Assembly: GCF_000981785.2 (NCBI RefSeq)
Contig: NZ_CP011304.1
Location: 2,340,001-2,372,000 of the forward strand
Length of the DNA stretch: 32,000 bases
Reading direction: 5' to 3'
Source of the DNA: Microcystis aeruginosa NIES-2549
Lineage (GTDB): Bacteria; Cyanobacteriota; Cyanobacteriia; Cyanobacteriales; Microcystaceae
Part shown: positions 4,210-31,887 of the stretch, piece after piece
Position numbering within the stretch: position 1 is the first letter of the stretch
How the letters are laid out: the number at the start of each line of letters is the position of its first letter
Program-made: the position numbers and the translations under genes
The notes under the pieces: model-generated
What the model saw: the letters and a program-made list of their open reading frames with translations, nothing else
The model's database searches: none
Told to the model about the DNA's origin: nothing

Positions 4210-4567
4210 ATTAAATCCCACTTTCCGCACTTCTTAACATTCAATTGATAATTTTTACTAATATTAAATCCGGTTATTAAAGAATGATTATTTATTCTCC
4301 CTTTTGCCTTTTGCCTCTCCTCATAACTAGCCTGTACTCAACGAATTTAGTATAATATATTGCTGACAACCCTTTGACAGTAAGGATGATAGTTACAATC
4401 ATGGATTTTTATCAAGGTGAAGAATTGTAAATTTCTTTCTCAGAAAAAATCAATTATTGAAAATATTCTCAATAGTAGTTTCTACAATGAAGGTTTTTTG
4501 TCAAAACATCTTGGGGAATGTAAAAACATATAAAAGTATATGAAGATGTGCGGAATGTCGGTTAAAT
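4210..4567. mobile_element. Candidate non-autonomous element (MITE-like), AT-rich, with imperfect terminal inverted repeats
   Basis: Left end ATTAAATCCCACTTTCCGCACTTCTTAACAT versus the reverse complement of the right end, ATTTAACCGACATTCCGCACATCTTCATAT. They share an 8-nt core, TTCCGCAC, and match at roughly 21 of 30 positions by eye. AGT flanks both ends (4207-4209 and 4568-4570). There is no long ORF inside. Confidence 0.3.
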
Positions 4568-18551: not shown

Positions 18552-18785
18552 AGTGGGGAGATTTTCAGAAAAACCCTTGACAAATGGCGAGACTTGCTTT
18601 ATACTTTATGTATAATGGGAATCCGTGCGCCCATATATATAGGGTTTTTCGGCGAAGATAAGAGAGAAAAAAATAGACTGAAAAATCGGGTTGGATGAAG
18701 AGGGAAATTTTCTCTCCCCGACAAGCATTAAACAAAGCATTTCTGAGAGTCAAACCGAATCTTTGTCAGGTAGAGAAGTTTCAAG
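18552..18785 (+). repeat. Type IIG 5' module, copy A (promoter + leader + first ~28 codons)
   Basis: Aligns by eye with 21184-21375, 22584-22843 and 23012-23260. It is the most diverged copy. Confidence 0.9.
18577..18605 (+). promoter_or_regulatory. Predicted sigma70-type promoter: TTGACA - 17 nt - TATACT
   Basis: -35 TTGACA at 18577-18582 and -10 TATACT at 18600-18605, with exact 17-nt spacing. The same architecture is conserved in the three other module copies. Confidence 0.5.
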
Positions 18786-18895
18786 TATTCTTAGATACAA
18801 AAACGATGATCGGGGAGTTCAATATATCGGAAAATGGGAGAGATAACCCAAAAAAATTATCGTTAAATCATGTTAAGTCCCGTAGAAACGATTAA
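18695..18895 (+). pseudogene. Stub of a type IIG R-M gene N-terminus (MKREIFSPRQALNKAFLRVKPNLCQVEKFQ...) running into unrelated sequence
   Basis: The first ~30 codons are homologous to codons 1-30 of the 23162-26884 gene. The rest is unrelated, and the ORF ends 26 nt inside the next gene. Confidence 0.55.
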
Positions 18896-19250
18896 AATTC
18901 TCGAAAATCATCCCGATCGCACTTTTCCAGCTGGTGAAGTTATTTTTGCCGATGGCACGGAGGGCGAGTTAATGTACGGTATTCTTAGTGGAGAAGTGGA
19001 GATGTATGTCAAGGGACAATTGATAGAAACTCTAGAAAAAGGGGATGTATTCGGAGCAGGAGCGCTCCTGCACCCAGATAAACTGCGAGAATCCACAGCT
19101 ATCGCCAAAACTGATTGTAAATTAGCCTATATCAATCAACCGCAGTTTTTATTTGCCGTGCAGGAAACCCCCATGTTTGCGCTGGAAGTGTTAAGAAGTT
19201 ATTCCGATCGCTTTCGCAAGTTAAAAAAAATCTTCACCAGTGAAGCATAG
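18870..19250 (+). CDS. Cyclic nucleotide-binding domain protein
   Basis: 126-aa ORF with a cNMP-binding beta-barrel pattern (GDVFGAGALL...RESTAIAKTDCKLAYI). Confidence 0.75.
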   Translation: MLSPVETIKILENHPDRTFPAGEVIFADGTEGELMYGILSGEVEMYVKGQLIETLEKGDVFGAGALLHPDKLRESTAIAKTDCKLAYINQPQFLFAVQETPMFALEVLRSYSDRFRKLKKIFTSEA

Positions 19251-19279
19251 AGGAGCAAAAGAAAGCCATACCCCGAAAA

Positions 19280-20257
19280 CTATTGACCGAAAATCTCACC
19301 GATAGTTAAACGGGAACCATTGACCAAATCCCCACCAGAACGCGGTGATTTTCCCGATAATTGCACTTCTTTCAATAATAATAAACCCGCTCCTGTCTGC
19401 ACTACTGGCCCGAAATTTTTCCAGAGCGCCACGATCGATCCCACTTCTCCGCTTAGATCAGAAAGGTCTTTTGTCTGTAATTCTGGAGGAAGTTGACCGA
19501 GATCGTCTAGGGGAATAGTGGCCATCACTTTTAGGGGTTGTCCCCGGAAAGTGGTTAGCGCATTCGGATAAAAACCCCGGACTCGATCGTGAATTGTCCG
19601 GCCCGAATCTTGCCAGTGGATTAGATAGTCAGATTTTTGAATTAAAGGGGCATAGGTGGCATCGTCGTTATTTTGAGGAATTGGGGTAATTTCTGCTCGA
19701 TCGAGCTTAGAGAGGGTTTCTAGGAGCAAATCCGCCCCCATTTGGCCTAGGGTTGCTCCCACCTGTTCGGCATTGTCAAAAAGAGCGATCGGGCTGTAGG
19801 CTTTCAGTAACATCGATCCGGTGTCTAGGCCCGCATCCATTAACATGGTGGTAATGCCGGTTTCTTTTTCTCCCCTAGCGATGCACCACTGCACGGGGGC
19901 TGCTCCCCGATATTTGGGTAAAATTGAGCCATGAACGTTAATACAGCCTAATCGCGGCATCTCTAGAATTTCTGGGGAGAGAATTTGTCCGTAGGCAACG
20001 ACTACAAAGGCATCCGCTCGCGATTGTCTGAGAAAATTTAAGGTTTTAGCGTTTTTTTTCACACTTTTGGGCTGCAAAACCGGTATTTGCTGTTCTATGG
20101 CTATTTGTTTCACCGGTGAGGGGGTTAATTGATTACCCCTTCCCCGGCGCTTGTCCGGTTGGGTAACGACGGCAATTATTTCTATATCGGGATTGGCTAA
20201 TAATTTTTTTAGGGTGGGAACAGCAAAAGTCGGGGTTCCGAAAAAAACAATACGCAT
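19280..20257 (-). CDS. fmt: Methionyl-tRNA formyltransferase
   Basis: [20 protein letters not shown] and the hallmark [18 protein letters not shown]; 325 aa. Confidence 0.92.
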
Positions 20258-20299
20258 GGGAGAAGGGGGTATTTTTCAGTTATCAGTGTGCAGTAATCA

Positions 20300-21094
20300 T
20301 TAACGACTAACTATGCCAGACCATTGGATTTTTTTGGCTTTTTCCCGACGATAGGAGAAAAAATGATCTTCTTGTTGATAGGTACAAAAAGGAGCGATCG
20401 CGATTTGTTCATCCCTAATTCCTAACTGTTGTAGTTGATGATAAATCACCCGTCGCACGTCTAAGCGCACTTTTCCTTTTTCCTCGTCAGCAAATAAGGG
20501 GGAAGGGGAGAGGTTAAATAAATTCGCCAGAATTTGCTCGGGATTGGTTTCTTGGGGAAATAAACTTAAACCCACTTCTGCGGCAACTTCTCCATCTACT
20601 TGATACACTTCTCCGGCAATTGCTGGCCCCAGGGCCAAGACTAAGTTATCTAAACAACTACCGGAGTTTAATAACTGCTTAACTGCTTTGACAACTATTC
20701 CCTTAGCTGTCCCTCTCCATCCAGAATGAATCGCCACCCCAACACCGCTAGAGCGATCGCCTATTAGTACGGGCGTACAATCAGCACTGGCTACCCAAAT
20801 CCCTTGACCGGAAGCATCGGTGATAATTCCATCCGCTTCGGCTATTTCTGGGTTAGTAATCCCTTGGGGATTTAATAGGCGATCGCCATGTACCTGTTTG
20901 ACCCGATAAACTGGTACATTTGCCCCTAAAGCGTCCGTAAAAGCTTCCGGGGTTTGGGGGTAATAATGACGGGTAAAAAAGCCGTGGGACCAATCCTCTA
21001 GGAGATTACAGGTAAGATAGGGCAATCCTTGCCATGTTTGCCATTGCCACAGAGAAGTCTCGGTTAATCGGACATTGATCGCTACATTGGTCAC
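20300..21094 (-). CDS. pgeF: Peptidoglycan editing factor PgeF (YfiH/DUF152, laccase-domain family)
   Basis: 264-aa ORF with a KQVHG motif, the conserved AIHSGWRGT motif and a C-terminal CTY..EDHFFSYRR. Confidence 0.85.
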   Translation of the reverse strand: MTNVAINVRLTETSLWQWQTWQGLPYLTCNLLEDWSHGFFTRHYYPQTPEAFTDALGANVPVYRVKQVHGDRLLNPQGITNPEIAEADGIITDASGQGIWVASADCTPVLIGDRSSGVGVAIHSGWRGTAKGIVVKAVKQLLNSGSCLDNLVLALGPAIAGEVYQVDGEVAAEVGLSLFPQETNPEQILANLFNLSPSPLFADEEKGKVRLDVRRVIYHQLQQLGIRDEQIAIAPFCTYQQEDHFFSYRREKAKKIQWSGIVSR

Positions 21095-21183
21095 AGTCTA
21101 AGCCTCTCTGGCTGCAATAATACCTTATTCTCTCCTATCCTAGTTCTGAGCTTGGCTAAAAGGCAACCGGAAGATTATTACTT

Positions 21184-21375
21184 AAAACCCTTGACAAATG
21201 GCGAGATTTGCTTTAGACTTTTTATATAATGGGAATCCGTGCGCCCATATATATATAGTTTTTGGGCAAAGATAAGAGAGAAAAAAATAGACTCCAAAAC
21301 CGGGTTGAGTAGGAATGAGGATAAAGGTGTGAAGACGGAAAATTTCTCTCCCGGACAAGCATTAAACAAAGCATT
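21184..21375 (+). repeat. Type IIG 5' module, copy B (promoter + leader + first ~15 codons, GTG in place of ATG)
   Basis: Aligns with copies C and D up to ...ATTAAACAAAGCATT (21375), then diverges. Confidence 0.9.
21191..21219 (+). promoter_or_regulatory. Predicted sigma70-type promoter: TTGACA - 17 nt - TAGACT
   Basis: -35 at 21191-21196, -10 at 21214-21219. Confidence 0.45.
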
Positions 21376-21415
21376 ATTCGAGATTCGCGACAGATTGAGG
21401 AAAGGGCAGATTTAA
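21329..21415 (+). pseudogene. Stub of a type IIG N-terminus (VKTENFSPGQALNKA...) fused to unrelated residues, 28 codons
   Basis: GTG replaces the ATG of the other copies. Homology stops after codon ~15, and a stop follows at 21413-21415. Confidence 0.5.
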
Positions 21416-21486
21416 TTTTAATGTTATGTGGGGATGAATATTATCCAAATACCTCTAATCAGGGGATTATGGCAATTATCGAGGAT

Positions 21487-21573
21487 TTATAGTTCTCCTT
21501 TGAAGGTTTTTTCTCTGAGTTGTTTCACCTCGTTGATTTTGCCTTGTAGGTTATCAAGATAAGTGAAGATTTC
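21487..21573 (-). pseudogene. Relic of a type I restriction specificity subunit (HsdS) C-terminus
   Basis: My minus-strand translation is EIFTYLDNLQGKINEVKQLREKTFKGEL followed by a stop. The I..YLD.LQ.KI...K.L...FKGEL ending is the conserved C-terminal helix of HsdS proteins. The frame is closed by an upstream stop at 21574-21576, so only ~28 codons remain. Confidence 0.4.
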
Positions 21574-21592
21574 TTATTCTAAATCCCCACTT

Positions 21593-22012
21593 TCACTCAT
21601 ATTCACCCTCACCTATAAACAAATCATAAAACAAAGAAACCGAAATAATAACCGTTTGTTCTAATTCTATCATCTCCTCAAAATCCCGATCACCAGTAAT
21701 CAAAAAATCCGCCTCACTAACCCTTGCTAAAGCGATAAACTTAGCATCTTTGGCATCTCTGGCAAAATCTACAGTAACATTAACTTCTATTACTTTAGGA
21801 ATCGTTTCAATTTTATCAAGCCATTCCTGTCTTACTTCATCAGTTAACTTTAATTTCCGTCTATTTAAAACTTCTCGATATTCGGTTAAAATTTCCTGAG
21901 AAACTATCCAATCAATATCAGAATGGTCACTAATAAATTGAACAATCTCTCTCGGTTTTCTTCCTTTTAAAACTGCAGAAACAAGAATGTTAGTATCAAC
22001 AATAACCTTCAT
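21593..22012 (-). CDS. PIN-domain toxin (putative toxin-antitoxin system toxin component, PIN family)
   Basis: 139-aa ORF. MKVIVDTNILVSAVL supplies the first acidic residue, followed by ...SQEILTEYREVL...DAKFIALARVSEADFLITGDRDF. It overlaps the upstream gene by 4 nt (ATGA). Confidence 0.85.
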   Translation of the reverse strand: MKVIVDTNILVSAVLKGRKPREIVQFISDHSDIDWIVSQEILTEYREVLNRRKLKLTDEVRQEWLDKIETIPKVIEVNVTVDFARDAKDAKFIALARVSEADFLITGDRDFEEMIELEQTVIISVSLFYDLFIGEGEYE

Positions 22013-22386
22013 TCTCCTCTCCGATAAGCTTCAATTTCGGCGGCTATTTCTTCTTCTGTAATATCTTGAATACCCGGAATTGCTTGAGTTTTATTAAATA
22101 AATTCCTTAATTCCTGACTTAACCTTACTCTTTCAGGATCAATCGGTTTGTCCTTATTTTGTTCCCGTTCTTTTCGATACTTCCTAATCTTTTCTTTTAA
22201 TAAGGCTTTTGCGGATTCTCTCCCTTTAACATAATCGGGTAATATAATTTCATCCTCCTGTTCTTCTAATAGCTGAAACGCTTTAGAGATAACCTCTTGA
22301 GGGGTATTATATTTACCAGTTTTCAGTTGTCTTTCTAAAAACTGTTCCTGTTCAGGGGTTAACGTAATTTGTATCATAATTACCAA
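22009..22386 (-). CDS. ParD/RHH-like antitoxin partnered with the PIN toxin
   Basis: The N-terminus ITLTPEQEQFLERQLKTGKYNTPQEVISKAFQLLEEQE matches the ParD-type pattern (...G.Y.s.sEvvr.al.lLee.e). Its stop overlaps the toxin start. The start could be Met1 or Met4. Confidence 0.7.
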   Translation of the reverse strand: MVIMIQITLTPEQEQFLERQLKTGKYNTPQEVISKAFQLLEEQEDEIILPDYVKGRESAKALLKEKIRKYRKEREQNKDKPIDPERVRLSQELRNLFNKTQAIPGIQDITEEEIAAEIEAYRRGE

Positions 22387-22608
22387 ATAGTTTGAAGATT
22401 AGATAAAGCTTGAATATAGCAGAAACCTTAATCTGACCCTGATGCCTAACAACATTTTCTTTATCCTGATTTAAAACCCCCTTAATCTCAGCCATCAACC
22501 CCCTGATTCTTGCATCCTTTTTCATAATAGCACTCAGCAACTGTTCGGGGGGTAAATGTTCAAAATCTTCCAGGAACTGGGGAAGTGGGGAAATTTTCAG
22601 AAAAACCC

Positions 22609-22637
22609 TTGACAAATGGCGAGACTTGCTTTAGACT
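22609..22637 (+). promoter_or_regulatory. Predicted sigma70-type promoter: TTGACA - 17 nt - TAGACT
   Basis: -35 at 22609-22614, -10 at 22632-22637. Confidence 0.45.
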
Positions 22638-22745
22638 TTTTAGATAATGGGAATCCGTGCGCAAATATATATATAGTTTTTGAGCGAAGATAAGAGAGAA
22701 AAAAATAGACCCCAAAATCGGGTTGAGCAGGAAGAGGATAAAGGT

Positions 22746-22883
22746 ATGAAGACAGAAAATTTCTCTCCCCGACAAGCATTAAACAAAGCATTTCTGAGAG
22801 TCAAACCGAGTCGTAGTCAGGTAGAGAAGTTTCAAACCCACCTGACTGGAAAGAGGGTGTGGGGTGTAGGGTGTGGGGTGTAG
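22746..22883 (+). pseudogene. Truncated type IIG N-terminus (MKTENFSPRQALNKAFLRVKPSRSQVEKFQTHL then frame lost in an insertion)
   Basis: The first 33 codons are identical in protein to the full gene at 23162. The ORF then reads into the G-rich insertion and stops at 22883. Confidence 0.65.
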
Positions 22884-23011: not shown

Positions 23012-23260
23012 TTCTAAAAACCCTTGACAAATGACGAGACTTGCTTTAGACTTTTTAGATAATGGGAATCCGTGCGCAAATATATATATAGTTTTTGAGC
23101 AAAGATAAGAGAGAAAAAAATAGACTCCAAAATCGGGTTGAGTAGGAATAGGGATAAAGGTATGAAGACAGAAAATTTCTCTCCCCGACAAGCATTAAAC
23201 AAAGCATTTCTGAGAGTCAAACCGAGTCGTAGTCAGGTGGAGAAGTTTCAAACCCACCTA
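23012..23260 (+). repeat. Type IIG 5' module, copy D (the functional 5' end of the full-length gene)
   Basis: Reference copy for the alignment of A, B and C. Confidence 0.9.
23024..23052 (+). promoter_or_regulatory. Predicted promoter of the type IIG gene: TTGACA - 17 nt - TAGACT
   Basis: -35 at 23024-23029 and -10 at 23047-23052, about 110 nt upstream of the ATG at 23162. Confidence 0.55.
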
Positions 23261-26200
23261 GAACAACTTTTGGGGAGTATAAACGAGACAGAATCCGAGG
23301 AGTTCCATAAAAACCTGCTTGCAGACTTTCTCAAACACAGCTACTATAGTCCCCAACATTTCATCAACACCAAGGGAAGGAATGATTTAGTCATCCATAA
23401 TGGGAAAGAATCGCGGGATTCCGTGGGGGTAATACTGGAAGTCAAGAAACCCAGCAATAAAAGCGAGATGCTGCGGAGAGACAAACTCAACTGTAAAGCA
23501 TTACAGGAATTACTCCTCTACTTCCTACGGGAAAGAATAACCGAGAAAAACCTAGAGATAAAACACCTGATTGCTACCAATATATATGAGTGGTTTATCT
23601 TCGATGGGAATATCTTCGAGAGACTATTCGCACAAAATCAGGAACTTGTCAGACAGTTTAATGACTTTGAGACGGGGAGACTAACGGGAAAAACCACCGA
23701 CTTCTTCTACAAACAGATAGGGGAACCCTTCCTGAACTCCATACTCGATTCCCTGACATACACCCATTTTGACTTGCGGGAATACTCCCAAACCATCCGG
23801 GAAGACGAACATAACCTTATCAGTCTCTATAAAATCTTTTCTCCCGAACACCTCTTAAAACTCCCCTTTGCGAACGATAGCAACAGTCTCGACAAAAACT
23901 TTTATAGTGAACTGCTGCATATCATCGGATTGACAGAGATAAAAGAGGGAGGAAAAAAACTCATCCAACGTCTGCAACCGGCAGCGCGACAACCCGGTTC
24001 GCTGCTAGAGAACGCTATCAGTCAAGTGGAGAGTTTAGATAAAATCTCTCGTTTACCCAATCCCGAAGAATTTGGGGAGACGGAAGAGGAGAGACTATTG
24101 AATATCGGTTTAGAGTTGGGGATAACCTGGATAAATAGAATCCTCTTCCTCAAACTATTAGAAGCGCAGATAATTAGGTATCATCGGGGGGATAAATCCC
24201 TAGGGTTTCTCAATTTAGGCAAAATTGCCAACTATGACGACTTAAATCGCTTATTTTTCAGCGTTTTGGCCAAAAAACAGACAGAAAGAAGCAAAGACAT
24301 CCAGAATACCCATACTCAGGTTCCCTATCTCAACAGTTCCCTATTTGAACCGACAGACTTAGAACAGTCAACCATAGTCATCAGTAACCTGCGTTCGGAG
24401 AATATAGAGATTTTTGCAGGAACAGTCTTAAAGGATAGTCAGGGGAAAAAGCGAACAGGAGAAATCAACGCTTTAGCATACCTATTTGAGTTTCTCAATG
24501 CCTACGATTTTAGCAGCGAAGGTGGGGAAGCGATACAGGAGGATAATAAGACTCTTATCAATGCGTCAGTGTTGGGATTAATCTTCGAGAAAATCAACGG
24601 ATATAAGGATGGTTCCTTTTTCACCCCCGGTTTCATCACTATGTATATGTGTCGGGAAACGATTCGACGCGCAGTAATAGAGAAATTTAACCAGAGTCAG
24701 GGATGGGATTGTCAGACAATCGAGGATGTGTATAACCGCATCAAAGACAAAACGGCAGCCAATGCTATTATCAATAGTCTCAAAATTTGTGATCCTGCGG
24801 TGGGTTCGGGACATTTTCTTGTTTCTGCTTTGAACGAGATAATCGCGATTAAGAGTGAGTTACAGATTTTATTGGATAAAGAGGGTAAAACTCTCAGGGA
24901 TTATCGGGTTGAGGTGGTGAACGATGAGTTAATCGTCACCGATGATGACGGTAATCTGTTTGAATATAATCCCCGCAACCGAGAAAGTCAGCGAGTACAG
25001 GAGACTTTATTTCAGGAAAAACAGCGTCTGATTGAGGGGTGTCTCTTTGGAGTTGATATCAATCCCAACTCGGTGAAAATCTGTCGGTTGCGTTTATGGA
25101 TTGAGTTACTCAAGAATGCTTACTACAAAGCAGATAACGAGTTAGAGACGTTACCGAATATCGATATTAATATCAAGGTTGGCAATTCTCTGATTAGTCG
25201 CTTTGGGTTATCCAATGATTTACAAGTCTTTTCCCGCAAAAGTCGTTTAAGTATCGAGAGTTATAAGGATGCGGTGAGAGTCTATCGCAACGCGGAGGAT
25301 AAGTCGCAAAAGCGTGAGATGGAGAGATTGATAAGCGAGATTAAGAGTAGTTTTCGTCAGACTTTACAGTTAGATGAACCTCTGAAAAAGCGCTTGCGGG
25401 GTTTGGAAACGGATTTATATAGTCTAGAGAATCAAATTTTGTTATTTGAGGAGTCACCCAAGGAAAAGAAAGCGCGGGAAAGGAAGATTATTCAGTTAAG
25501 GAATGAGATTGATAAGTTACGTCCGCAACTAGAGGAGATTGAAAGCGGTAAGATTTATCATAATGCTTTTGAATGGCGCTTCGAGTTCCCCGAAGTCCTA
25601 GATGATAAGGGGAATTTTATCGGTTTTGATGTCATTATAGGTAATCCTCCTTGGGGAGCAAAAATAGATAATAAACATCTAACCAAAATAAAAGAGAAAA
25701 ATTCCGATATTATCGTGAGAATGATAGATTCTTTCATGTTTTTTGTTAATTTGACATTCTCCATTAAATCGCAATATGGTCTTATCTGTCAAATTATCCC
25801 CGATGTTATTCTCTATCAAGTTGATAATGAAAAATTACGAGAGAAAATTTTTAAAACCCATCAATTAGAGATAGCTTTTAATCTGGGAGATAGAATTTTT
25901 GAAGATGTTGCTAGACCATGTTGTATTATACTTCTGACATCGAAATTTACTAATATATCTTGGGTGGGAGAATATCAAAAATCTTCTGATGATAGTGTTA
26001 ATAGTCTCAGTCACAATTTATTAATACCAATAGAGACATCTTTTTTTAAAACAATTCCTAATCAAGTCATTACTACTAAAAACCTAATTGGATACAAAAT
26101 TATCAATAGATATAATAAAATTAAACTTAGAGACTTAATAGATCAAGATGGAATTCAAAGAGGAGTCAGTCCTGATTTAAAAGAAGCTTTTATTGTTGAT

Positions 26201-26884
26201 AAAAAAAATATCGATAAATTCCATCTGGAGCAAAATTTTATTTTTCCTACTATTACTGGTGGGAGGGATTTAAATAAATACTTGATCTCAGATATTGATA
26301 AAAAGATTATCTATACTAAAAAAACGGATGATCCTCAATTAATACCGCAAATAATTGAGTATTTAAAATCTTTTAAAGAGCGAATAACTTGTGTAGAAGT
26401 TAAAGAAAATAAACATCCTTTTTGGTCTTTGCACCGTCCCAGAAACCAAGAAATTTTTCTAAAACCAGAAAAAATTATTGGTGTGATTACTGGAGATAAA
26501 ATTATTGTTGCTTTGGATAACAATCAAATATTTCCAACGGATGGACTATACTTAATGTCCAGTAGCGGAAGATTATCCAATAAATTTTTATTAGGAGTTT
26601 TAAACTCAAAAATCATTACTTATTTTTATCGATTATTGTCAATGGAAGTTAATCGTACTTTAGCTCAAATAAAGCCAACAATTTTAGAAGAAGTACCGAT
26701 TGAAACACATCCTGAAACCTTAGTAAAAAAAATTGAAATTAAAGTCGATCAAATTCTCACGGCTAAAAAATCTAATCCCAAAGCTGACACCAGCGAGTTA
26801 GAAAAAGAGATTGACAAAATAGTGTATGAATTGTATGGATTAAGTGAGGAAGAAATCAGGATAATAGAGGGGGAAATAAAATAA
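23162..26884 (+). CDS. Type IIG (Eco57I-like) single-chain restriction endonuclease / N6-adenine DNA methyltransferase with a C-terminal target-recognition domain
   Basis: The N-terminal PD-(D/E)xK-type nuclease pattern is GRNDLVIH...GVILEVKKP. Methyltransferase motif I is ICDPAVGSGHFLV (from 24791), followed by FGVDINPNSVKICRLRLWIELL, NIKVGNSLI and motif IV VIIGNPPWG (NPPW codons 25643-25654). A long K/E/R-rich, probably coiled-coil segment lies between the motifs. The C-terminal ~400 aa are TaqI-like-specificity-domain-like and end in IVYELYGLSEEEIRIIEG. I prefer ATG 23162 (MKTENFSPRQ) over the track's TTG at 23138. Confidence 0.85.
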   Translation: MKTENFSPRQALNKAFLRVKPSRSQVEKFQTHLEQLLGSINETESEEFHKNLLADFLKHSYYSPQHFINTKGRNDLVIHNGKESRDSVGVILEVKKPSNKSEMLRRDKLNCKALQELLLYFLRERITEKNLEIKHLIATNIYEWFIFDGNIFERLFAQNQELVRQFNDFETGRLTGKTTDFFYKQIGEPFLNSILDSLTYTHFDLREYSQTIREDEHNLISLYKIFSPEHLLKLPFANDSNSLDKNFYSELLHIIGLTEIKEGGKKLIQRLQPAARQPGSLLENAISQVESLDKISRLPNPEEFGETEEERLLNIGLELGITWINRILFLKLLEAQIIRYHRGDKSLGFLNLGKIANYDDLNRLFFSVLAKKQTERSKDIQNTHTQVPYLNSSLFEPTDLEQSTIVISNLRSENIEIFAGTVLKDSQGKKRTGEINALAYLFEFLNAYDFSSEGGEAIQEDNKTLINASVLGLIFEKINGYKDGSFFTPGFITMYMCRETIRRAVIEKFNQSQGWDCQTIEDVYNRIKDKTAANAIINSLKICDPAVGSGHFLVSALNEIIAIKSELQILLDKEGKTLRDYRVEVVNDELIVTDDDGNLFEYNPRNRESQRVQETLFQEKQRLIEGCLFGVDINPNSVKICRLRLWIELLKNAYYKADNELETLPNIDINIKVGNSLISRFGLSNDLQVFSRKSRLSIESYKDAVRVYRNAEDKSQKREMERLISEIKSSFRQTLQLDEPLKKRLRGLETDLYSLENQILLFEESPKEKKARERKIIQLRNEIDKLRPQLEEIESGKIYHNAFEWRFEFPEVLDDKGNFIGFDVIIGNPPWGAKIDNKHLTKIKEKNSDIIVRMIDSFMFFVNLTFSIKSQYGLICQIIPDVILYQVDNEKLREKIFKTHQLEIAFNLGDRIFEDVARPCCIILLTSKFTNISWVGEYQKSSDDSVNSLSHNLLIPIETSFFKTIPNQVITTKNLIGYKIINRYNKIKLRDLIDQDGIQRGVSPDLKEAFIVDKKNIDKFHLEQNFIFPTITGGRDLNKYLISDIDKKIIYTKKTDDPQLIPQIIEYLKSFKERITCVEVKENKHPFWSLHRPRNQEIFLKPEKIIGVITGDKIIVALDNNQIFPTDGLYLMSSSGRLSNKFLLGVLNSKIITYFYRLLSMEVNRTLAQIKPTILEEVPIETHPETLVKKIEIKVDQILTAKKSNPKADTSELEKEIDKIVYELYGLSEEEIRIIEGEIK

Positions 26885-26895
26885 ATATAAATGTA

Positions 26896-26923
26896 GGGTG
26901 TGTTAGCGAAGCGTAACGCACCC
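26896..26923. repeat. Hairpin repeat GGGTGTGTTAGCGAAGCGTAACGCACCC (preceded by GTA), immediately 3' of the type IIG stop
   Basis: About 12 bp of pairing with one G-U pair and one bulge. The sequence type is common in cyanobacterial intergenic regions. Confidence 0.7.
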
Positions 26924-26956
26924 AAAAGCATCCCAAAGGACTAAAAAAAATTTGAT

Positions 26957-26987
26957 CCCCCTAAATCCCCCTTAAAAAGGGGGACTT
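26957..26987. repeat. 31-bp mini palindromic element CCCCCTAAATCCCCCTTAAAAAGGGGGACTT flanked by 9-bp direct repeats AAATTTGAT
   Basis: Stem TCCCCCTT(26966-26973)/AAGGGGGA(26977-26984). Identical AAATTTGAT at 26948-26956 and 26988-26996. Confidence 0.7.
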
Positions 26988-27218
26988 AAATTTGATACAT
27001 TCGTTCTCATGATAAATTCTGTTTTTAATAGTATGATGAACTCCCAATCGAACTTTAAAACCCATCTCCCCACTTCCCCATACCTATTACCTATAATTAT
27101 TAGTATTCTATAATACCAATGCTTAGGAAACTATAAAGAAAATCCCAAGATTGAGCGAGTACCTTGGCAAAAAAAGCTATAATAGAATAAAATGCCTAAT
27201 TTTTTCAACAAAATTGTT

Positions 27219-29885
27219 ATGATAGTTACCAATAGACAAGAGCTAGAAGAACTGATACAACAGGTAAAAAAAGCTCAACAACAATTTGCCAACTATAACC
27301 AAGAACAAGTAGATCTTATCTTCAAAAAAGCCGCATTAGCAGCCAACAACGCTCGCATTCCCCTAGCTAAAATGGCAGTACAAGAGACAGGGATGGGAGT
27401 AATAGAAGATAAAGTGATTAAAAACCATTTTGCCTCAGAAATCATCTACAACAAATATAAACACAGCAAAACCTGCGGCATTATCGAAGAAGATAAATCC
27501 TTTGGATTGCAAAAAATCGCCGAACCCGTGGGCATTTTAGCGGGGATCGTACCCACTACAAATCCCACCTCCACAGCCATTTTTAAAGCCCTAATTGCCC
27601 TGAAAACCCGCAACGGCATCATTTTTTCCCCCCATCCGCGAGCCAAAGACTGCACCATCGCAGCGGCCAAAATAGTCTTAGAAGCGGCCGTCAAAGCAGG
27701 CGCACCGGCCGGTATTATTGGTTGGATCGATCAGCCATCGGTGGAACTTTCCCAAGCATTAATGCAACATCCCAGCATTAATTTAATCCTTGCTACCGGC
27801 GGTCCCGGTATGGTAAAAGCGGCCTATTCTTCCGGAAGACCTTCCCTAGGAGTCGGTGCCGGCAATACCCCCGCTTTAGTGGACGAAACTGCTCACATAA
27901 AAATGGCCGTTTCCTCGATTATTCTCAGTAAAACCTTCGATAACGGCATGATTTGCGCCTCGGAACAATCGGTAATCGTTGTCGATAGCATCTATGAAGA
28001 AGTTCGACAGGAATTTATTGATCGCGGGGCCTATCTTCTTTCCCCCGAAGAAAGGGAAAAAGTCGCCGGGATTCTCCTCAAAGATGGTCATATCAACCCC
28101 GATATCGTCGGACAACCGGTAGAAAAATTAGCCACCATGGCCGGAATTTCCGTTCCCGAAGATACCCGCTTACTAATCGGAGAAGTAGAAAATATTGGCT
28201 TAGAAGAACCATTTTCCTACGAAAAACTCTCGCCAATTTTAGCCATGTACCGAGCGAAAGACTTTGAAGATGGGGTAAAAAAAGCCGAAAAACTGGTCTT
28301 ATTTGCCGGTCGAGGTCATACGGCCGTGCTTTATACCGCACCCTCCAATCGGGAACATATTAAGCACTTTCAAGACAACGTACAAACGGCCCGGGTATTA
28401 ATTAATACCCCTTCCTCCCAGGGTGCGATTGGTGATATCTATAACTTCCGTCTCGATCCTAGTTTAACCCTCGGTTGTGGCACTTGGGGCGGTAATTCCA
28501 TCAGCGAAAACGTCGAACCTACCCACCTATTAAATATTAAAACCGTAGCCGAGCGCCGGGAAAATATGCTTTGGTTCCGAGTACCACCAAAAGTATATTT
28601 TAAATACGGGTCATTACCGATCGCTATTCGGGAATTAGCCGGCAAAAAACGGGCCTTTATTGTCACCGATAAACCTCTTTTCGACCTAGGAGTTACCGCA
28701 CCTTTACAGGAAATTTTAGAAGAAATCGGCATCACGATTAATATCTTTTATGATGTGGAACCCGATCCTTCCCTAGAAACCGTCGAACGGGGGTTAAATG
28801 TAATTAATACCTTCAATCCCGATGTAATTATCGCTATCGGTGGCGGTTCCCCCATGGATGCCGCTAAAATCATGTGGCTACTCTACGAGCATCCAGAGAT
28901 AGAATTCGAGAGCTTGGCCATGCGTTTTATGGATATCCGCAAACGAGTCTATGAATTGCCCCCTTTAGGTGAAAAAGCTCTCATGGTGTGTATTCCCACC
29001 ACTTCGGGAACAGGATCGGAAGTGACTCCCTTCGCCGTCGTCACCGATCGCCGTAATAATATTAAGTATCCTCTGGCAGATTATGCCCTAACTCCCAGCA
29101 TGGCAATTGTCGATCCGGAATTAGTGCTAAATATGCCGAAAAAATTAACAGCCTACGGCGGAATTGACGCTTTAACTCACGCTCTTGAGGCCTACGTCTC
29201 GGTTTTAGCCTCAGAATATACCAATGCTCTTGCTCAAGATGCCATCCGACTGCTGTTTAAATACTTGCCCAGTTCCTATCATAACGGAGCTAAAGACCCG
29301 AAAGCGCGGGAAAAAGTCCATTACGCGGCGACTATGGCAGGAATGGCCTTCGCTAATGGCTTTTTAGGCATCTGTCACTCCATGGCCCACCAATTAGGGG
29401 CAATTTTCCATATTCCCCACGGTCTAGCCAATGCCTTGATGATTTCCCACGTCATCCTCTATAATGCCACCGATGCCCCCTTTAAACAGGCTACCTTCTC
29501 TCAGTACAAATATCCTAACGTGAAGTGGCGCTATGCCAGAATCGCTCATTCCTTGGGATTGGGAGGAGAAAGCGAGACCGAAAGTGTGGAAAGATTGGTA
29601 TTAGCGATCGAATGTTTAAAACGGGAAATCGGTATTCCGGCCAGTATTAAAGAGGTAATTCCCGAAACTGAAGCCGAATTTATGGCCAAATTAGACCATT
29701 TAGCCGAACAAGCTTTCGATGATCAGTGTACCGGAGCCAATCCCCGTTATCCCCTGATTGAGGACTTAAAAACCCTGTTAATCCAAGCTTATCACGGCAA
29801 TTTGCCCCTAGAGGTGGCGGTAAATGGTCACGGTGAGGTCAGTCTTGCCGATTTGAAGTTAGAGCCGCAACCGTTGAGCTTGTAG
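27219..29885 (+). CDS. adhE: Bifunctional acetaldehyde-CoA / alcohol dehydrogenase
   Basis: From MIVTNRQELEELIQQVKKAQQQFANYNQEQVDLIFKKAALAANNARIPLAKMAVQETGMGVIEDKVIKNHFASE the protein is collinear with E. coli AdhE (MAVTNVAELNALVERVKKAQREYASFTQEQVDKIF...), so I start at ATG 27219 rather than 27192. The C-terminal half carries the Fe-ADH motif GGGSPMDAAK. Confidence 0.92.
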   Translation: MIVTNRQELEELIQQVKKAQQQFANYNQEQVDLIFKKAALAANNARIPLAKMAVQETGMGVIEDKVIKNHFASEIIYNKYKHSKTCGIIEEDKSFGLQKIAEPVGILAGIVPTTNPTSTAIFKALIALKTRNGIIFSPHPRAKDCTIAAAKIVLEAAVKAGAPAGIIGWIDQPSVELSQALMQHPSINLILATGGPGMVKAAYSSGRPSLGVGAGNTPALVDETAHIKMAVSSIILSKTFDNGMICASEQSVIVVDSIYEEVRQEFIDRGAYLLSPEEREKVAGILLKDGHINPDIVGQPVEKLATMAGISVPEDTRLLIGEVENIGLEEPFSYEKLSPILAMYRAKDFEDGVKKAEKLVLFAGRGHTAVLYTAPSNREHIKHFQDNVQTARVLINTPSSQGAIGDIYNFRLDPSLTLGCGTWGGNSISENVEPTHLLNIKTVAERRENMLWFRVPPKVYFKYGSLPIAIRELAGKKRAFIVTDKPLFDLGVTAPLQEILEEIGITINIFYDVEPDPSLETVERGLNVINTFNPDVIIAIGGGSPMDAAKIMWLLYEHPEIEFESLAMRFMDIRKRVYELPPLGEKALMVCIPTTSGTGSEVTPFAVVTDRRNNIKYPLADYALTPSMAIVDPELVLNMPKKLTAYGGIDALTHALEAYVSVLASEYTNALAQDAIRLLFKYLPSSYHNGAKDPKAREKVHYAATMAGMAFANGFLGICHSMAHQLGAIFHIPHGLANALMISHVILYNATDAPFKQATFSQYKYPNVKWRYARIAHSLGLGGESETESVERLVLAIECLKREIGIPASIKEVIPETEAEFMAKLDHLAEQAFDDQCTGANPRYPLIEDLKTLLIQAYHGNLPLEVAVNGHGEVSLADLKLEPQPLSL

Positions 29886-30947: not shown

Positions 30948-31505
30948 ATGACGATCAAATTTCGGTTTCATCCAGAGAAAGCAGTTGAAGCCGCTGCTAT
31001 ACTCTTAAAGCTGCACGGCAAACCGATGAAGTATTTAGGGTTGCTGAAAATGCTCTATATAGCTGACCGTCTTGCTTTAAAAACCATGGATCAACCAATT
31101 ACTGGGGATAGATATGTATCAATGGATTATGGACCGGTTCTCAGGGGTGTTTATGATTTGATTAAAGGACAGCCCGTGGACTCTGCTTTACCCCTGTGGT
31201 CGAAATATATTTCTCCCCGGGATTCTAATTATGTTGACCTGCTGCAATATCCCGGCAATGAAGAACTCTGTGAAGAAGAAGAAATGATTCTTAAACAGGT
31301 TTACAAGACTTTTGGCCATCTCAATCCCTTTCTTGTAGCCGAATGGACTCACGATTTACCAGAATGGAAGGATCCCCATGGTTCGGCTATTCCAATTTTA
31401 GTGGAGGATGTTTTGCGATCTATGGGTAAAACGGAGGAGGAAATCGAAGATATTAGCCAAGAAGCCCAGCGAGAAGCCTATTTAGATGGAGCTTTACATG
31501 GCTAG
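30948..31505 (+). CDS. Panacea (DUF4065, SocA/GepA-like) domain protein, putative PanA-type antitoxin
   Basis: LKMLYIADRLALKTMDQPITGDRYVSMDYGPVLRGVYDLIKG matches the DUF4065 core (KLLYLAD...G.PITGD.YVA...GPV...VYD) as I recall it. Confidence 0.75.
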   Translation: MTIKFRFHPEKAVEAAAILLKLHGKPMKYLGLLKMLYIADRLALKTMDQPITGDRYVSMDYGPVLRGVYDLIKGQPVDSALPLWSKYISPRDSNYVDLLQYPGNEELCEEEEMILKQVYKTFGHLNPFLVAEWTHDLPEWKDPHGSAIPILVEDVLRSMGKTEEEIEDISQEAQREAYLDGALHG

Positions 31506-31887
31506 TCTGGTAGTCAAGCTGGGGGATGCCTTTTTAATCGATACACCCCCTAATAAGCAACATCTCTATATTGCGATCGCAAAGACTTCTGAAAATAGAT
31601 ATTTATTTGTCAATGTTACAACTCGAAGAAGCAGTTCGGAAGCTACTTGTGTGCTTTTGCCCGGCCTTGGTGTCCCGAATTTTATCGTCTGTGAATCCGT
31701 GATTGCCTATCAATTTGCCCGGGAGATGGATGCCACGGAATTAGCCAGTTTAATCACTGCGGGTAGTCCGATTCCAAAAGGCTCCTGTTCAGCCACAATT
31801 CTCGCACAGATTCAGCAAGGTGGTCTAGTTTCTCGACGACTGAAAAACAAGTACAAAATTGCTCTTAGAGCTTTCTTAGATACATAG
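31498..31887 (+). CDS. Hypothetical 129-aa protein translationally coupled to the Panacea-domain gene; candidate toxin partner
   Basis: The ATG at 31498 overlaps the upstream stop in ATGGCTAG (8-nt overlap). An alternative ATG lies at 31486. No family recognised. Confidence 0.5.
   Translation: MASLVVKLGDAFLIDTPPNKQHLYIAIAKTSENRYLFVNVTTRRSSSEATCVLLPGLGVPNFIVCESVIAYQFAREMDATELASLITAGSPIPKGSCSATILAQIQQGGLVSRRLKNKYKIALRAFLDT

Follow-up and report, generated by a model that had tools for sequence, protein, structure and literature searches.

The 32,000-nucleotide (nt) stretch of the Microcystis aeruginosa NIES-2549 chromosome analyzed here (the window; contig NZ_CP011304.1, positions 2,340,001 to 2,372,000) is an ordinary cyanobacterial chromosome segment with a background GC of 0.43-0.47. 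Upstream of adhE it carries an intact gene for a putative type IIG restriction-modification (RM) enzyme, whose 3' third, a low-GC block that differs from allele to allele, is the subject of this analysis (Table 1). The reading frame is open from a TTG codon at 23138, and the N-terminus of the protein family fits the ATG at 23162 as the start. The protein matches the Pfam families DUF7149, DUF7814, Eco57I, N6_Mtase, and TaqI_C, and its residues 13-1237 align with positions 12-1245 of the 1247 in the PADLOC profile REase_MTase_IIG (PDLC03612; E = 6e-244).

Table 1. Coordinates of the type IIG gene, its parts, and its immediate flanks in the window. ORF, open reading frame; MTase, methyltransferase; TRD, target-recognition domain; AF2, AlphaFold2; aa, amino acids; GC3, GC at third codon positions.
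Feature	Position	Strand	Basis or remark
Type IIG gene, intact, 1240 aa + stop	23162..26884	+	ORF list, Pfam, PADLOC, family consensus start
5' module: TTGACA-17-TAGACT promoter-like site, leader, first ~33 codons	23008..23259	+	Fourth repeat copy
N-terminal DUF7149 domain, PD-(D/E)xK-type signature	23180..23878	+	Pfam E 1.6e-100
DUF7814 connector domain	23879..24559	+	Pfam E 1.5e-95
N-terminal half of gamma-class N6-adenine MTase domain; backbone end, 5' homology arm	24560..25654	+	Invariant columns, allele DNA identity
Variable low-GC cassette	25653..26740	+	Composition, junction alignment, Pfam ranges, AF2 model, Foldseek
Cassette part: C-terminal half of MTase fold, motifs V-VIII	~25655-25981	+	
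Cassette part: TRD proper	~25982-26740	+	Includes TaqI_C 26441-26701
Cassette 3' patch, aa 1125-1193	26534..26740	+	Differing history versus same-type allele L081
Conserved C-terminal helices (VDQILTAKKSNPKADTSELEKEIDKIVYELYGLSEEEIRIIEGEIK) + stop; 3' homology arm	26741..26884	+	Identity, GC3, resumed DNA homology
Intergenic spacer, terminator-like hairpin 26966-26984	26885..27191	.	Partly conserved among alleles, with indels
adhE, aldehyde/alcohol dehydrogenase, conserved downstream neighbor	27192..29885	+	Pfam, allele synteny

The NPPW codons of the gene (25643-25654) mark a step in GC from 0.42 to 0.29 and in GC3 from 0.475 to 0.21. Sliding 200-nt windows give a GC of 0.37-0.455 over 23100-25699 and of 0.255-0.315 over 25600-26899, and GC3 in 60-codon windows is 0.38-0.58 on the 5' side of the step versus 0.12-0.27 on its 3' side. 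We located the step by binomial maximum-likelihood change-point analysis, with 1000 codon permutations as the null. The GC3 change point falls at nt 25613 (support within 2 units of log-likelihood ratio [LLR], 25589-25643) and the all-position change point at nt 25661 (support 25598-25685). The LLR of the GC3 step is 44.8, whereas the permuted codons average 2.6 and reach 9.5 at most. A preliminary description of this DNA had reported an abrupt GC drop at NPPW and had placed these codons where we find them, and both statements hold. It had also let the low GC run on to the stop codon; this is true through 26740 (GC 0.27-0.29, GC3 0.18-0.22 for the cassette), but the last 47 codons (26741-26881) recover to a GC of 0.35 and a GC3 of 0.36. 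The low-GC block, 25655-26740, coincides with the block that varies among alleles, and the GC3 of the upstream part of the gene is close to that of the other genes in the window (0.448).

Such a drop might reflect nothing but the abundance of Ile, Lys, and Asn in a DNA-binding domain, with no exchange of DNA, and the cassette is indeed enriched in Ile (14.4% versus 8.5%) and Lys (10.8% versus 7.5%). However, the amino acids of the cassette, encoded with the codon usage of the upstream part, would have a GC of 0.385 and a GC3 of 0.474, whereas the observed values are 0.286 and 0.21. Amino acids thus account for ~0.03 of the 0.13 drop in GC, and about three quarters of the drop is synonymous rather than an effect of protein composition. 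Refuted by this synonymous-site analysis, and confronted with allele comparisons that show replacement directly (see below), the compositional explanation has a negligible chance of being correct.

The preserved signatures suggest a single-chain type IIG RM enzyme, with nuclease and MTase in one polypeptide. Among 76 family members from Cyanobacteria, Bacteroidota, Proteobacteria, and other groups, 278 of the 831 N-terminal residues are at least 97% invariant. These include D75 (23384-23386) and E93-V-K95 (23438-23446) of the DUF7149 domain, in the pattern D75...E93-x-K95; MTase motif I, DPAVGSG (aa 544-550, 24791-24811); and the NPP of motif IV, NPPW (aa 828-831). The invariance of D75, E93, and K95 suggests that the DUF7149 domain is the nuclease. 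Motif I precedes motif IV and the TRD is C-terminal (TaqI_C at aa 1094-1180), which is the order characteristic of gamma-class MTases, and both the catalytic signatures and the ORF are intact. No hsdS- or hsdM-like ORF was found among the neighbors of the gene, which are a PIN/RHH toxin-antitoxin pair and adhE. The literature that we searched yielded no mention of DUF7149 or DUF7814.

The composition step does not lie at the boundary between catalytic core and TRD, where the preliminary description had put it, but inside the MTase fold. Past NPPW, the Pfam Eco57I match extends for another 81 residues and the N6_Mtase match for 96, and residues resembling motifs V-VIII (D-x-F-x-x-F, G-x4-I-x-P, R, and F-x-D) occur in every cassette type. 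The AF2 model of aa 470-1240 (mean predicted local distance difference test score of 72.7, below 50 around NPPW, and 85-95 in the TRD) has additional helices and four strands between NPPW and ~aa 940, followed by the TRD and the C-terminal helices. The best Foldseek fold matches of the MTase-plus-TRD part are CamA, M.BseCI, PglX, MmeI, M.TaqI, and BpuSI; a sequence search for solved homologs returned a single weak Protein Data Bank match (7vru, E = 0.003). Because the Pfam matches continue past NPPW and the conserved motifs V-VIII and the remaining modeled strands come after it, the junction lies directly after motif IV within the fold, and the unit exchanged is the C-terminal half of the MTase together with the TRD.

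The first ~831-835 residues, here called the backbone, are 95-100% identical in dozens of Microcystis proteins, while the C-terminal remainder is 23-33% identical to that of the window protein in all but one cluster (P0001, 93%). Clustering of 60 Microcystis proteins resolved at least eight cassette types on backbones that are 95-100% identical. The mean pairwise identity of eight types is 0.98 over the 60 residues before NPPx, 0.25 over the ~110 residues of the MTase C-terminal half that follow, 0.22 over the TRD proper (range 17-36%), and 0.83 over the C-terminal arm. At the DNA level, four alleles with other cassette types (L001, L002, L003, and L024) are 94-98% identical to the window from ~23007 to the junction, and homology stops at 25652 or 25658, within the fourth codon of motif IV; after a shared T this codon reads TGG (W) in the window versus TAT (Y) in the others. 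Past 25652, Microcystis alleles are only 17-47% identical in protein until the last 47 codons, where DNA homology to other alleles restarts (26744-26795), and it extends into adhE at 95-98% in L001, L024, and L081. Types 1, 2, 5, and 7 all lie upstream of adhE and are therefore alleles of one locus; identity over the adhE flank is 98% for L001 and L024 and 95% for L081, and in L082, too, the gene is followed by adhE. Near-identical flanks around unrelated TRDs at one locus are what defines allelic TRD cassettes, and this is the arrangement found here.

With TRDs that share only 17-36% identity, different cassettes would be expected to confer different recognition sequences. Several unassigned asymmetric m6A motifs have been described in the methylome of M. 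panniformis (PMC4730716), and we found no published Microcystis methylome assigned to the type IIG gene. Near the 5' junction, the 12 nt before NPP (25633-25642) read GTCATTATAGGT in the window, and GTGGT(A/G)ATTGG(C/T) or GTGATAATTGGC in all other Microcystis alleles, including L081, which has the same cassette type. The 5' crossover of the window, or a small conversion patch, may thus lie ~20 nt upstream of the common junction, which fits the GC3 change point at 25613.

L081, from M. wesenbergii, is the only other allele with the cassette type of the window, and we compared the two by synonymous divergence (dS, Nei-Gojobori method). The dS is lowest in the cassette core (aa 832-1124), at 0.047, and rises to 0.170 in the backbone, 0.38 in the C-terminal arm, and, for the 3' patch (aa 1125-1193), 0.73; Fisher tests give p = 1e-4 for backbone versus core and 5e-11 for core versus patch. 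DNA identity changes from 97-98% to 77-85% at ~26535. Since dS differs among these segments, backbone, core, and 3' patch have different histories, with an internal breakpoint near 26535, and the cassette core was common to the two lineages more recently than their backbones split. The preliminary description had seen in the gene a three-part mosaic of a shared 5' module, a core, and an exchangeable TRD; the repeated 5' module is real (see below), but the mosaic has more parts, namely the 47-codon 3' arm and the segments on either side of this breakpoint.

The same pair of alleles bears on whether the C-terminal third could have diverged in place, without recombination, driven by strong diversifying selection. 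Frequency-dependent selection is expected to act on RM specificity, and the ratio of nonsynonymous to synonymous divergence (dN/dS) between the window and L081 is 0.37 in the cassette core, above the 0.08 of the backbone. Yet, where backbones are 98-100% identical, identity drops from 98% to ~25% over a single codon, indels included; between these two strains, the cassette has a lower dS than the backbone; and a nearly identical cassette occurs on a 66%-identical backbone in another phylum. Divergence in place is therefore highly improbable.

This cross-backbone match joins the type-2 cassette of Microcystis BLCC-F210 (L082, 5389-6560) to that of a Bacteroidetes metagenome-assembled genome (MAG; L028, 8404-9575). 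From NPPY to 58 nt before the stop codon the two are 87% identical in DNA (82-94% in sliding windows), whereas their N-terminal parts are ~65% identical in DNA and 66% in protein; GC3 of the flanking ORFs is 0.41 in L082 and 0.55 in L028. The MAG label, MA_BCD_1, hints at a Microcystis-associated bacterium. Among 190 family proteins, 42 pairs combine a cassette at least 80% identical with a backbone at most 80% identical, and 2015 pairs display the reverse discordance.

Cassettes could also be exchanged within one genome, by a shufflon or other phase-variation system in which a site-specific recombinase moves silent cassettes into the expression site; Type I hsdS genes provide known examples (discussed in PMC3077401). 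Self-BLAST of the 32-kb window detected no second copy of either arm, tblastn with the seven other cassette types detected no silent cassette elsewhere in it, and no recombinase gene was found there. Because silent cassette, repeated arm, and recombinase are all missing from the window, the exchange is between genomes. Cassette-only ORFs on long contigs in the databases, considered as orphan cassettes, are probably fragments of interrupted genes; the one that we examined is the tail of a gene with a ~530-nt insertion. We consequently regard a shufflon as very unlikely.

Several related observations concern insertions and the reach of the cassette. In L085 (3899-8152), a ~530-nt insertion lies between aa 657 and 660 in the same frame, and in L017, L056, and L064 the tblastn match spans 4.9-5.6 kb instead of the usual 3.7 kb, implying insertions of 1.2-1.8 kb. 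The cassette of the window is 40-45% identical to the C-terminal parts of MTases of 590-670 aa (P0143, P0136, P0146, and others), one of them an "HsdM family" protein of Azotobacter chroococcum. Judged by their length and their listed Pfam domains, these MTases appear to lack the nuclease and connector domains, and the cassette pool may extend beyond type IIG enzymes. A scan of viral contigs with the cassette as query returned no relative.

The low GC of the cassette is not peculiar to this strain. All Microcystis alleles examined have a backbone GC of ~0.42 and a cassette GC of 0.27-0.32. Of 66 family loci from several phyla, 64 have a lower GC3 in the cassette than in the backbone (means 0.24 and 0.40; Wilcoxon p = 2e-12), and the GC3 profile averaged over 70 non-Microcystis loci drops at NPPx, with a partial recovery over the last 20-40 codons. 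With host GC3 estimated from flanking ORFs, backbone GC3 is on average close to that of the host (+0.02), and cassette GC3 is below it in 59 of 62 loci (mean -0.14). Because the cassette is poor in GC3 in nearly all loci, relative to both backbone and host, the step is a general trait of the family and provides no evidence of a recent swap in this strain. Of the swapped TRD that had been read from the GC drop, the exchangeable module thus stands, with at least eight C-terminal types and homology that ends at 25652; the drop as the mark of a swap here does not. Homologs of the same two-part composition with congruent histories of both halves, which had been named as evidence against a swap, were found in part: the composition recurs in the family loci just described, and also in the Microcoleus and Planktothrix genes that carry the TRD type of the window.

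The exchange could be real and the low GC nevertheless be kept by a mutation or selection regime specific to this region, rather than be a legacy of foreign DNA. A non-homologous cassette that does not recombine between alleles would escape GC-biased gene conversion; alternatively, under weaker codon selection, the cassette would drift with an AT-biased mutation spectrum. Consistent with such a regime, backbone GC3 tracks the host mean while cassettes fall below it in genomes of many phyla, the step marks the limit of inter-allelic homology both in the window and in the mean profile of the family, GC3 partly recovers in the conserved 3' arm, and cassette types shared at just 50-57% identity stay AT-rich in hosts with a GC3 of 0.43-0.58 (L005, L016). 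However, direct cross-backbone transfers exist and continual import would suffice, and the GC3 of the 3' arm recovers only partly and is based on 47 codons. Correlations with host GC are too weak, at r = 0.38 (backbone) and 0.48 (cassette), to separate a mobile pool from a local regime. We consider a regional regime possible but doubtful. The hsdS genes are likewise low in GC, and we found no paper stating that TRDs are AT-rich.

We conclude that the 3' third of the type IIG gene (25653-~26740) is, with high probability, an allelic cassette that is replaced in the Microcystis population by homologous recombination, from an AT-rich pool. The alleles document discrete cassette types, shared breakpoints, segment-specific divergence, and cross-backbone transfer. 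In the mechanism that we propose, an enzyme consisting of a PD-ExK nuclease, a connector, a gamma-class N6-adenine MTase, and a C-terminal TRD would undergo a 5' crossover in the near-identical backbone, whose end lies at the NPP codons of motif IV, and a 3' crossover in the conserved last 47 codons or in the adhE flank. Each cassette would bring its own MTase C-terminal half and its own TRD and, because one TRD guides both activities, a swap would retarget methylation and cleavage in one step. Cassettes would derive from an AT-rich pool that is exchanged also between unrelated backbones and phyla, which would be why composition drops exactly where homology ends. Phage pressure may keep up the diversity of cassettes.

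Several points weigh against this conclusion. The AT-richness of the cassette fits both an AT-rich mobile pool and a region-specific mutation or selection regime. The phylum of L028 rests on the MAG label and the composition of its flanks. A search with the TRD alone among 5.8 billion proteins retrieved Microcystis proteins (100% and 93% identical) and then a Microcoleus protein at 70%, so that no closer donor was found there for the cassette type of the window. Finally, the same-type genes of Microcoleus and Planktothrix diverge from the window about equally in both parts (identities of 63-75% for the N-terminal part, 68-70% for the cassette); because of this, the cassette type of the window could be the ancestral partner of the backbone and the other types could be imports.

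The 5' end of the gene has a history of another kind. The 5' module is a direct repeat of 200-250 nt with further copies at 18561-18784 (A), 21175-21375 (B), and 22593-22843 (C), which are truncated, dead stubs (ORFs 18695-18895, 21239-21415, and 22680-22883). Other Microcystis loci carry two to six copies, spaced ~400 nt apart in L002, and upstream synteny varies among strains at these repeats. The module thus reflects duplication and rearrangement at the 5' end of the gene, not exchange of a protein module, and the stubs appear to mark a rearrangement hotspot. Between copies A and B (18785-21174) lie a cNMP-binding ORF, fmt, and a Cu-oxidase_4 (pgeF-like) gene. Exactly between copies B and C (21376-22592), and hence flanked by direct repeats of ~200 nt, is the toxin-antitoxin pair, consisting of a PIN gene (21593-22012) and an RHH/ParD-like gene (22009-22386), both on the minus strand and with a GC of ~0.34. 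This arrangement is similar to the "insertion with long target duplication" that has been described for RM genes, those of Microcystis among them (PMC2853133). Elsewhere, the region upstream of the type IIG gene contains trmD and cyanophycin genes (L081, 1-8000) or HSP70 and Uma2 genes (L082, 1-3000); adhE is conserved on the downstream side.

Two further features of the window lie apart from the gene. A 49-nt sequence at 4259-4307 recurs in inverted orientation in the spacer 3' of the type IIG gene in L001 and L081 (88-90% identity) and is absent from the spacer of the window itself; it may be a small dispersed repeat. Downstream, an ORF for a SocA-like antitoxin with a Panacea domain (30948-31505) is overlapped by a 133-aa ORF that has no Pfam match (31486-31887), and the two may form another toxin-antitoxin pair.

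Replacement of TRDs between conserved flanks is already known from Type I S genes and from the S gene of a type IIG system of Helicobacter pylori (PMC3077401, PMC3575425, PMC3983042, PMC5399793), and this locus works in the same way. The H. pylori specificity genes, of Type I and Type IIG, show both replacement of TRDs and "domain movement" (Furuta et al. 2011, PMC3077401; 2012, PMC3575425; 2014, PMC3983042). As here, alleles of one locus carry unrelated TRDs between conserved flanks, the replacement is attributed to recombination in the flanks, and different species and classes have TRD groups in common. The H. pylori TRDs, however, belong to a separate S subunit, whose gene has two of them between short repeats, and they can move between positions, whereas the single TRD described here is fused to the enzyme, the 5' junction is at motif IV, and half of the MTase fold moves with it. 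The Sau1 HsdS of Staphylococcus aureus (PMC5399793) similarly draws on a pool of interchangeable TRDs between conserved helices to set lineage-specific specificity, and by analogy the conserved C-terminal helices of the type IIG enzyme plausibly play the role of the HsdS conserved region. Sau1 HsdS differs in being a separate S subunit with bipartite targets, and no part of an MTase fold travels with its TRDs.

In architecture, the enzyme resembles MmeI (5HR4; Foldseek E = 3e-11) and BpuSI (3S1S, PMC3185434; E = 2e-7), which likewise combine nuclease, connector, gamma-class N6-adenine MTase, and C-terminal TRD in one polypeptide; its sequence family, DUF7149/DUF7814, is different. Membership in the MmeI family (type IIL) was rejected, as the MmeI_Mtase model scored 25.6 bits, below its cut-off of 27, and the MmeI N-terminal, spacer, TRD, and C-terminal models were unmatched. 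CamA (E = 2e-19), M.BseCI (1e-16), and M.TaqI (1e-7), among the best structural matches of the MTase-plus-TRD part, have neither nuclease nor connector domain, unlike the enzyme described here. In M.TaqI, motif IV lies in the middle of the fold and the TRD is C-terminal. The BREX protein PglX/BrxX is also a large gamma-class MTase with a TaqI_C-type TRD (E = 1.6e-12), but it differs from the type IIG protein, which has a PD-ExK N-terminal domain; assignment to BREX was rejected, with 75 bits for NCBIfam BREX_1_MTaseX against a cut-off of 500 and no BREX genes in the window. Less familiar than TRD replacement as such are a junction that falls within the catalytic domain, at the NPP|Y/W codon, a large series of alleles on one Microcystis backbone, an apparent cross-phylum transfer of a cassette, and a family-wide synonymous shift of the cassette toward AT.

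These findings carry a caution for genome scanning, in that modular gene families can carry a sharp internal composition step as a fixed trait, and such a step does not necessarily date a transfer. For enzyme engineering, the NPP|Y/W junction and the 47-residue C-terminal helical arm suggest swap points for chimeras in the widespread, uncharacterized DUF7149/DUF7814 family, and motifs V-VIII may need to travel with the TRD. There is also an outside chance that the AT-richness of the cassette is actively maintained in the exchangeable module and is not a passive trace of foreign origin; if this were true, through escape from GC-biased gene conversion or through selection for AT, the family would provide a within-gene test of what sets bacterial GC content. 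Microcystis strains have many RM systems, a load that has been argued to reflect phage pressure (mBio 2021, PMC8262939), and a single resident backbone with at least eight interchangeable specificity cassettes represents one route to such RM diversity.

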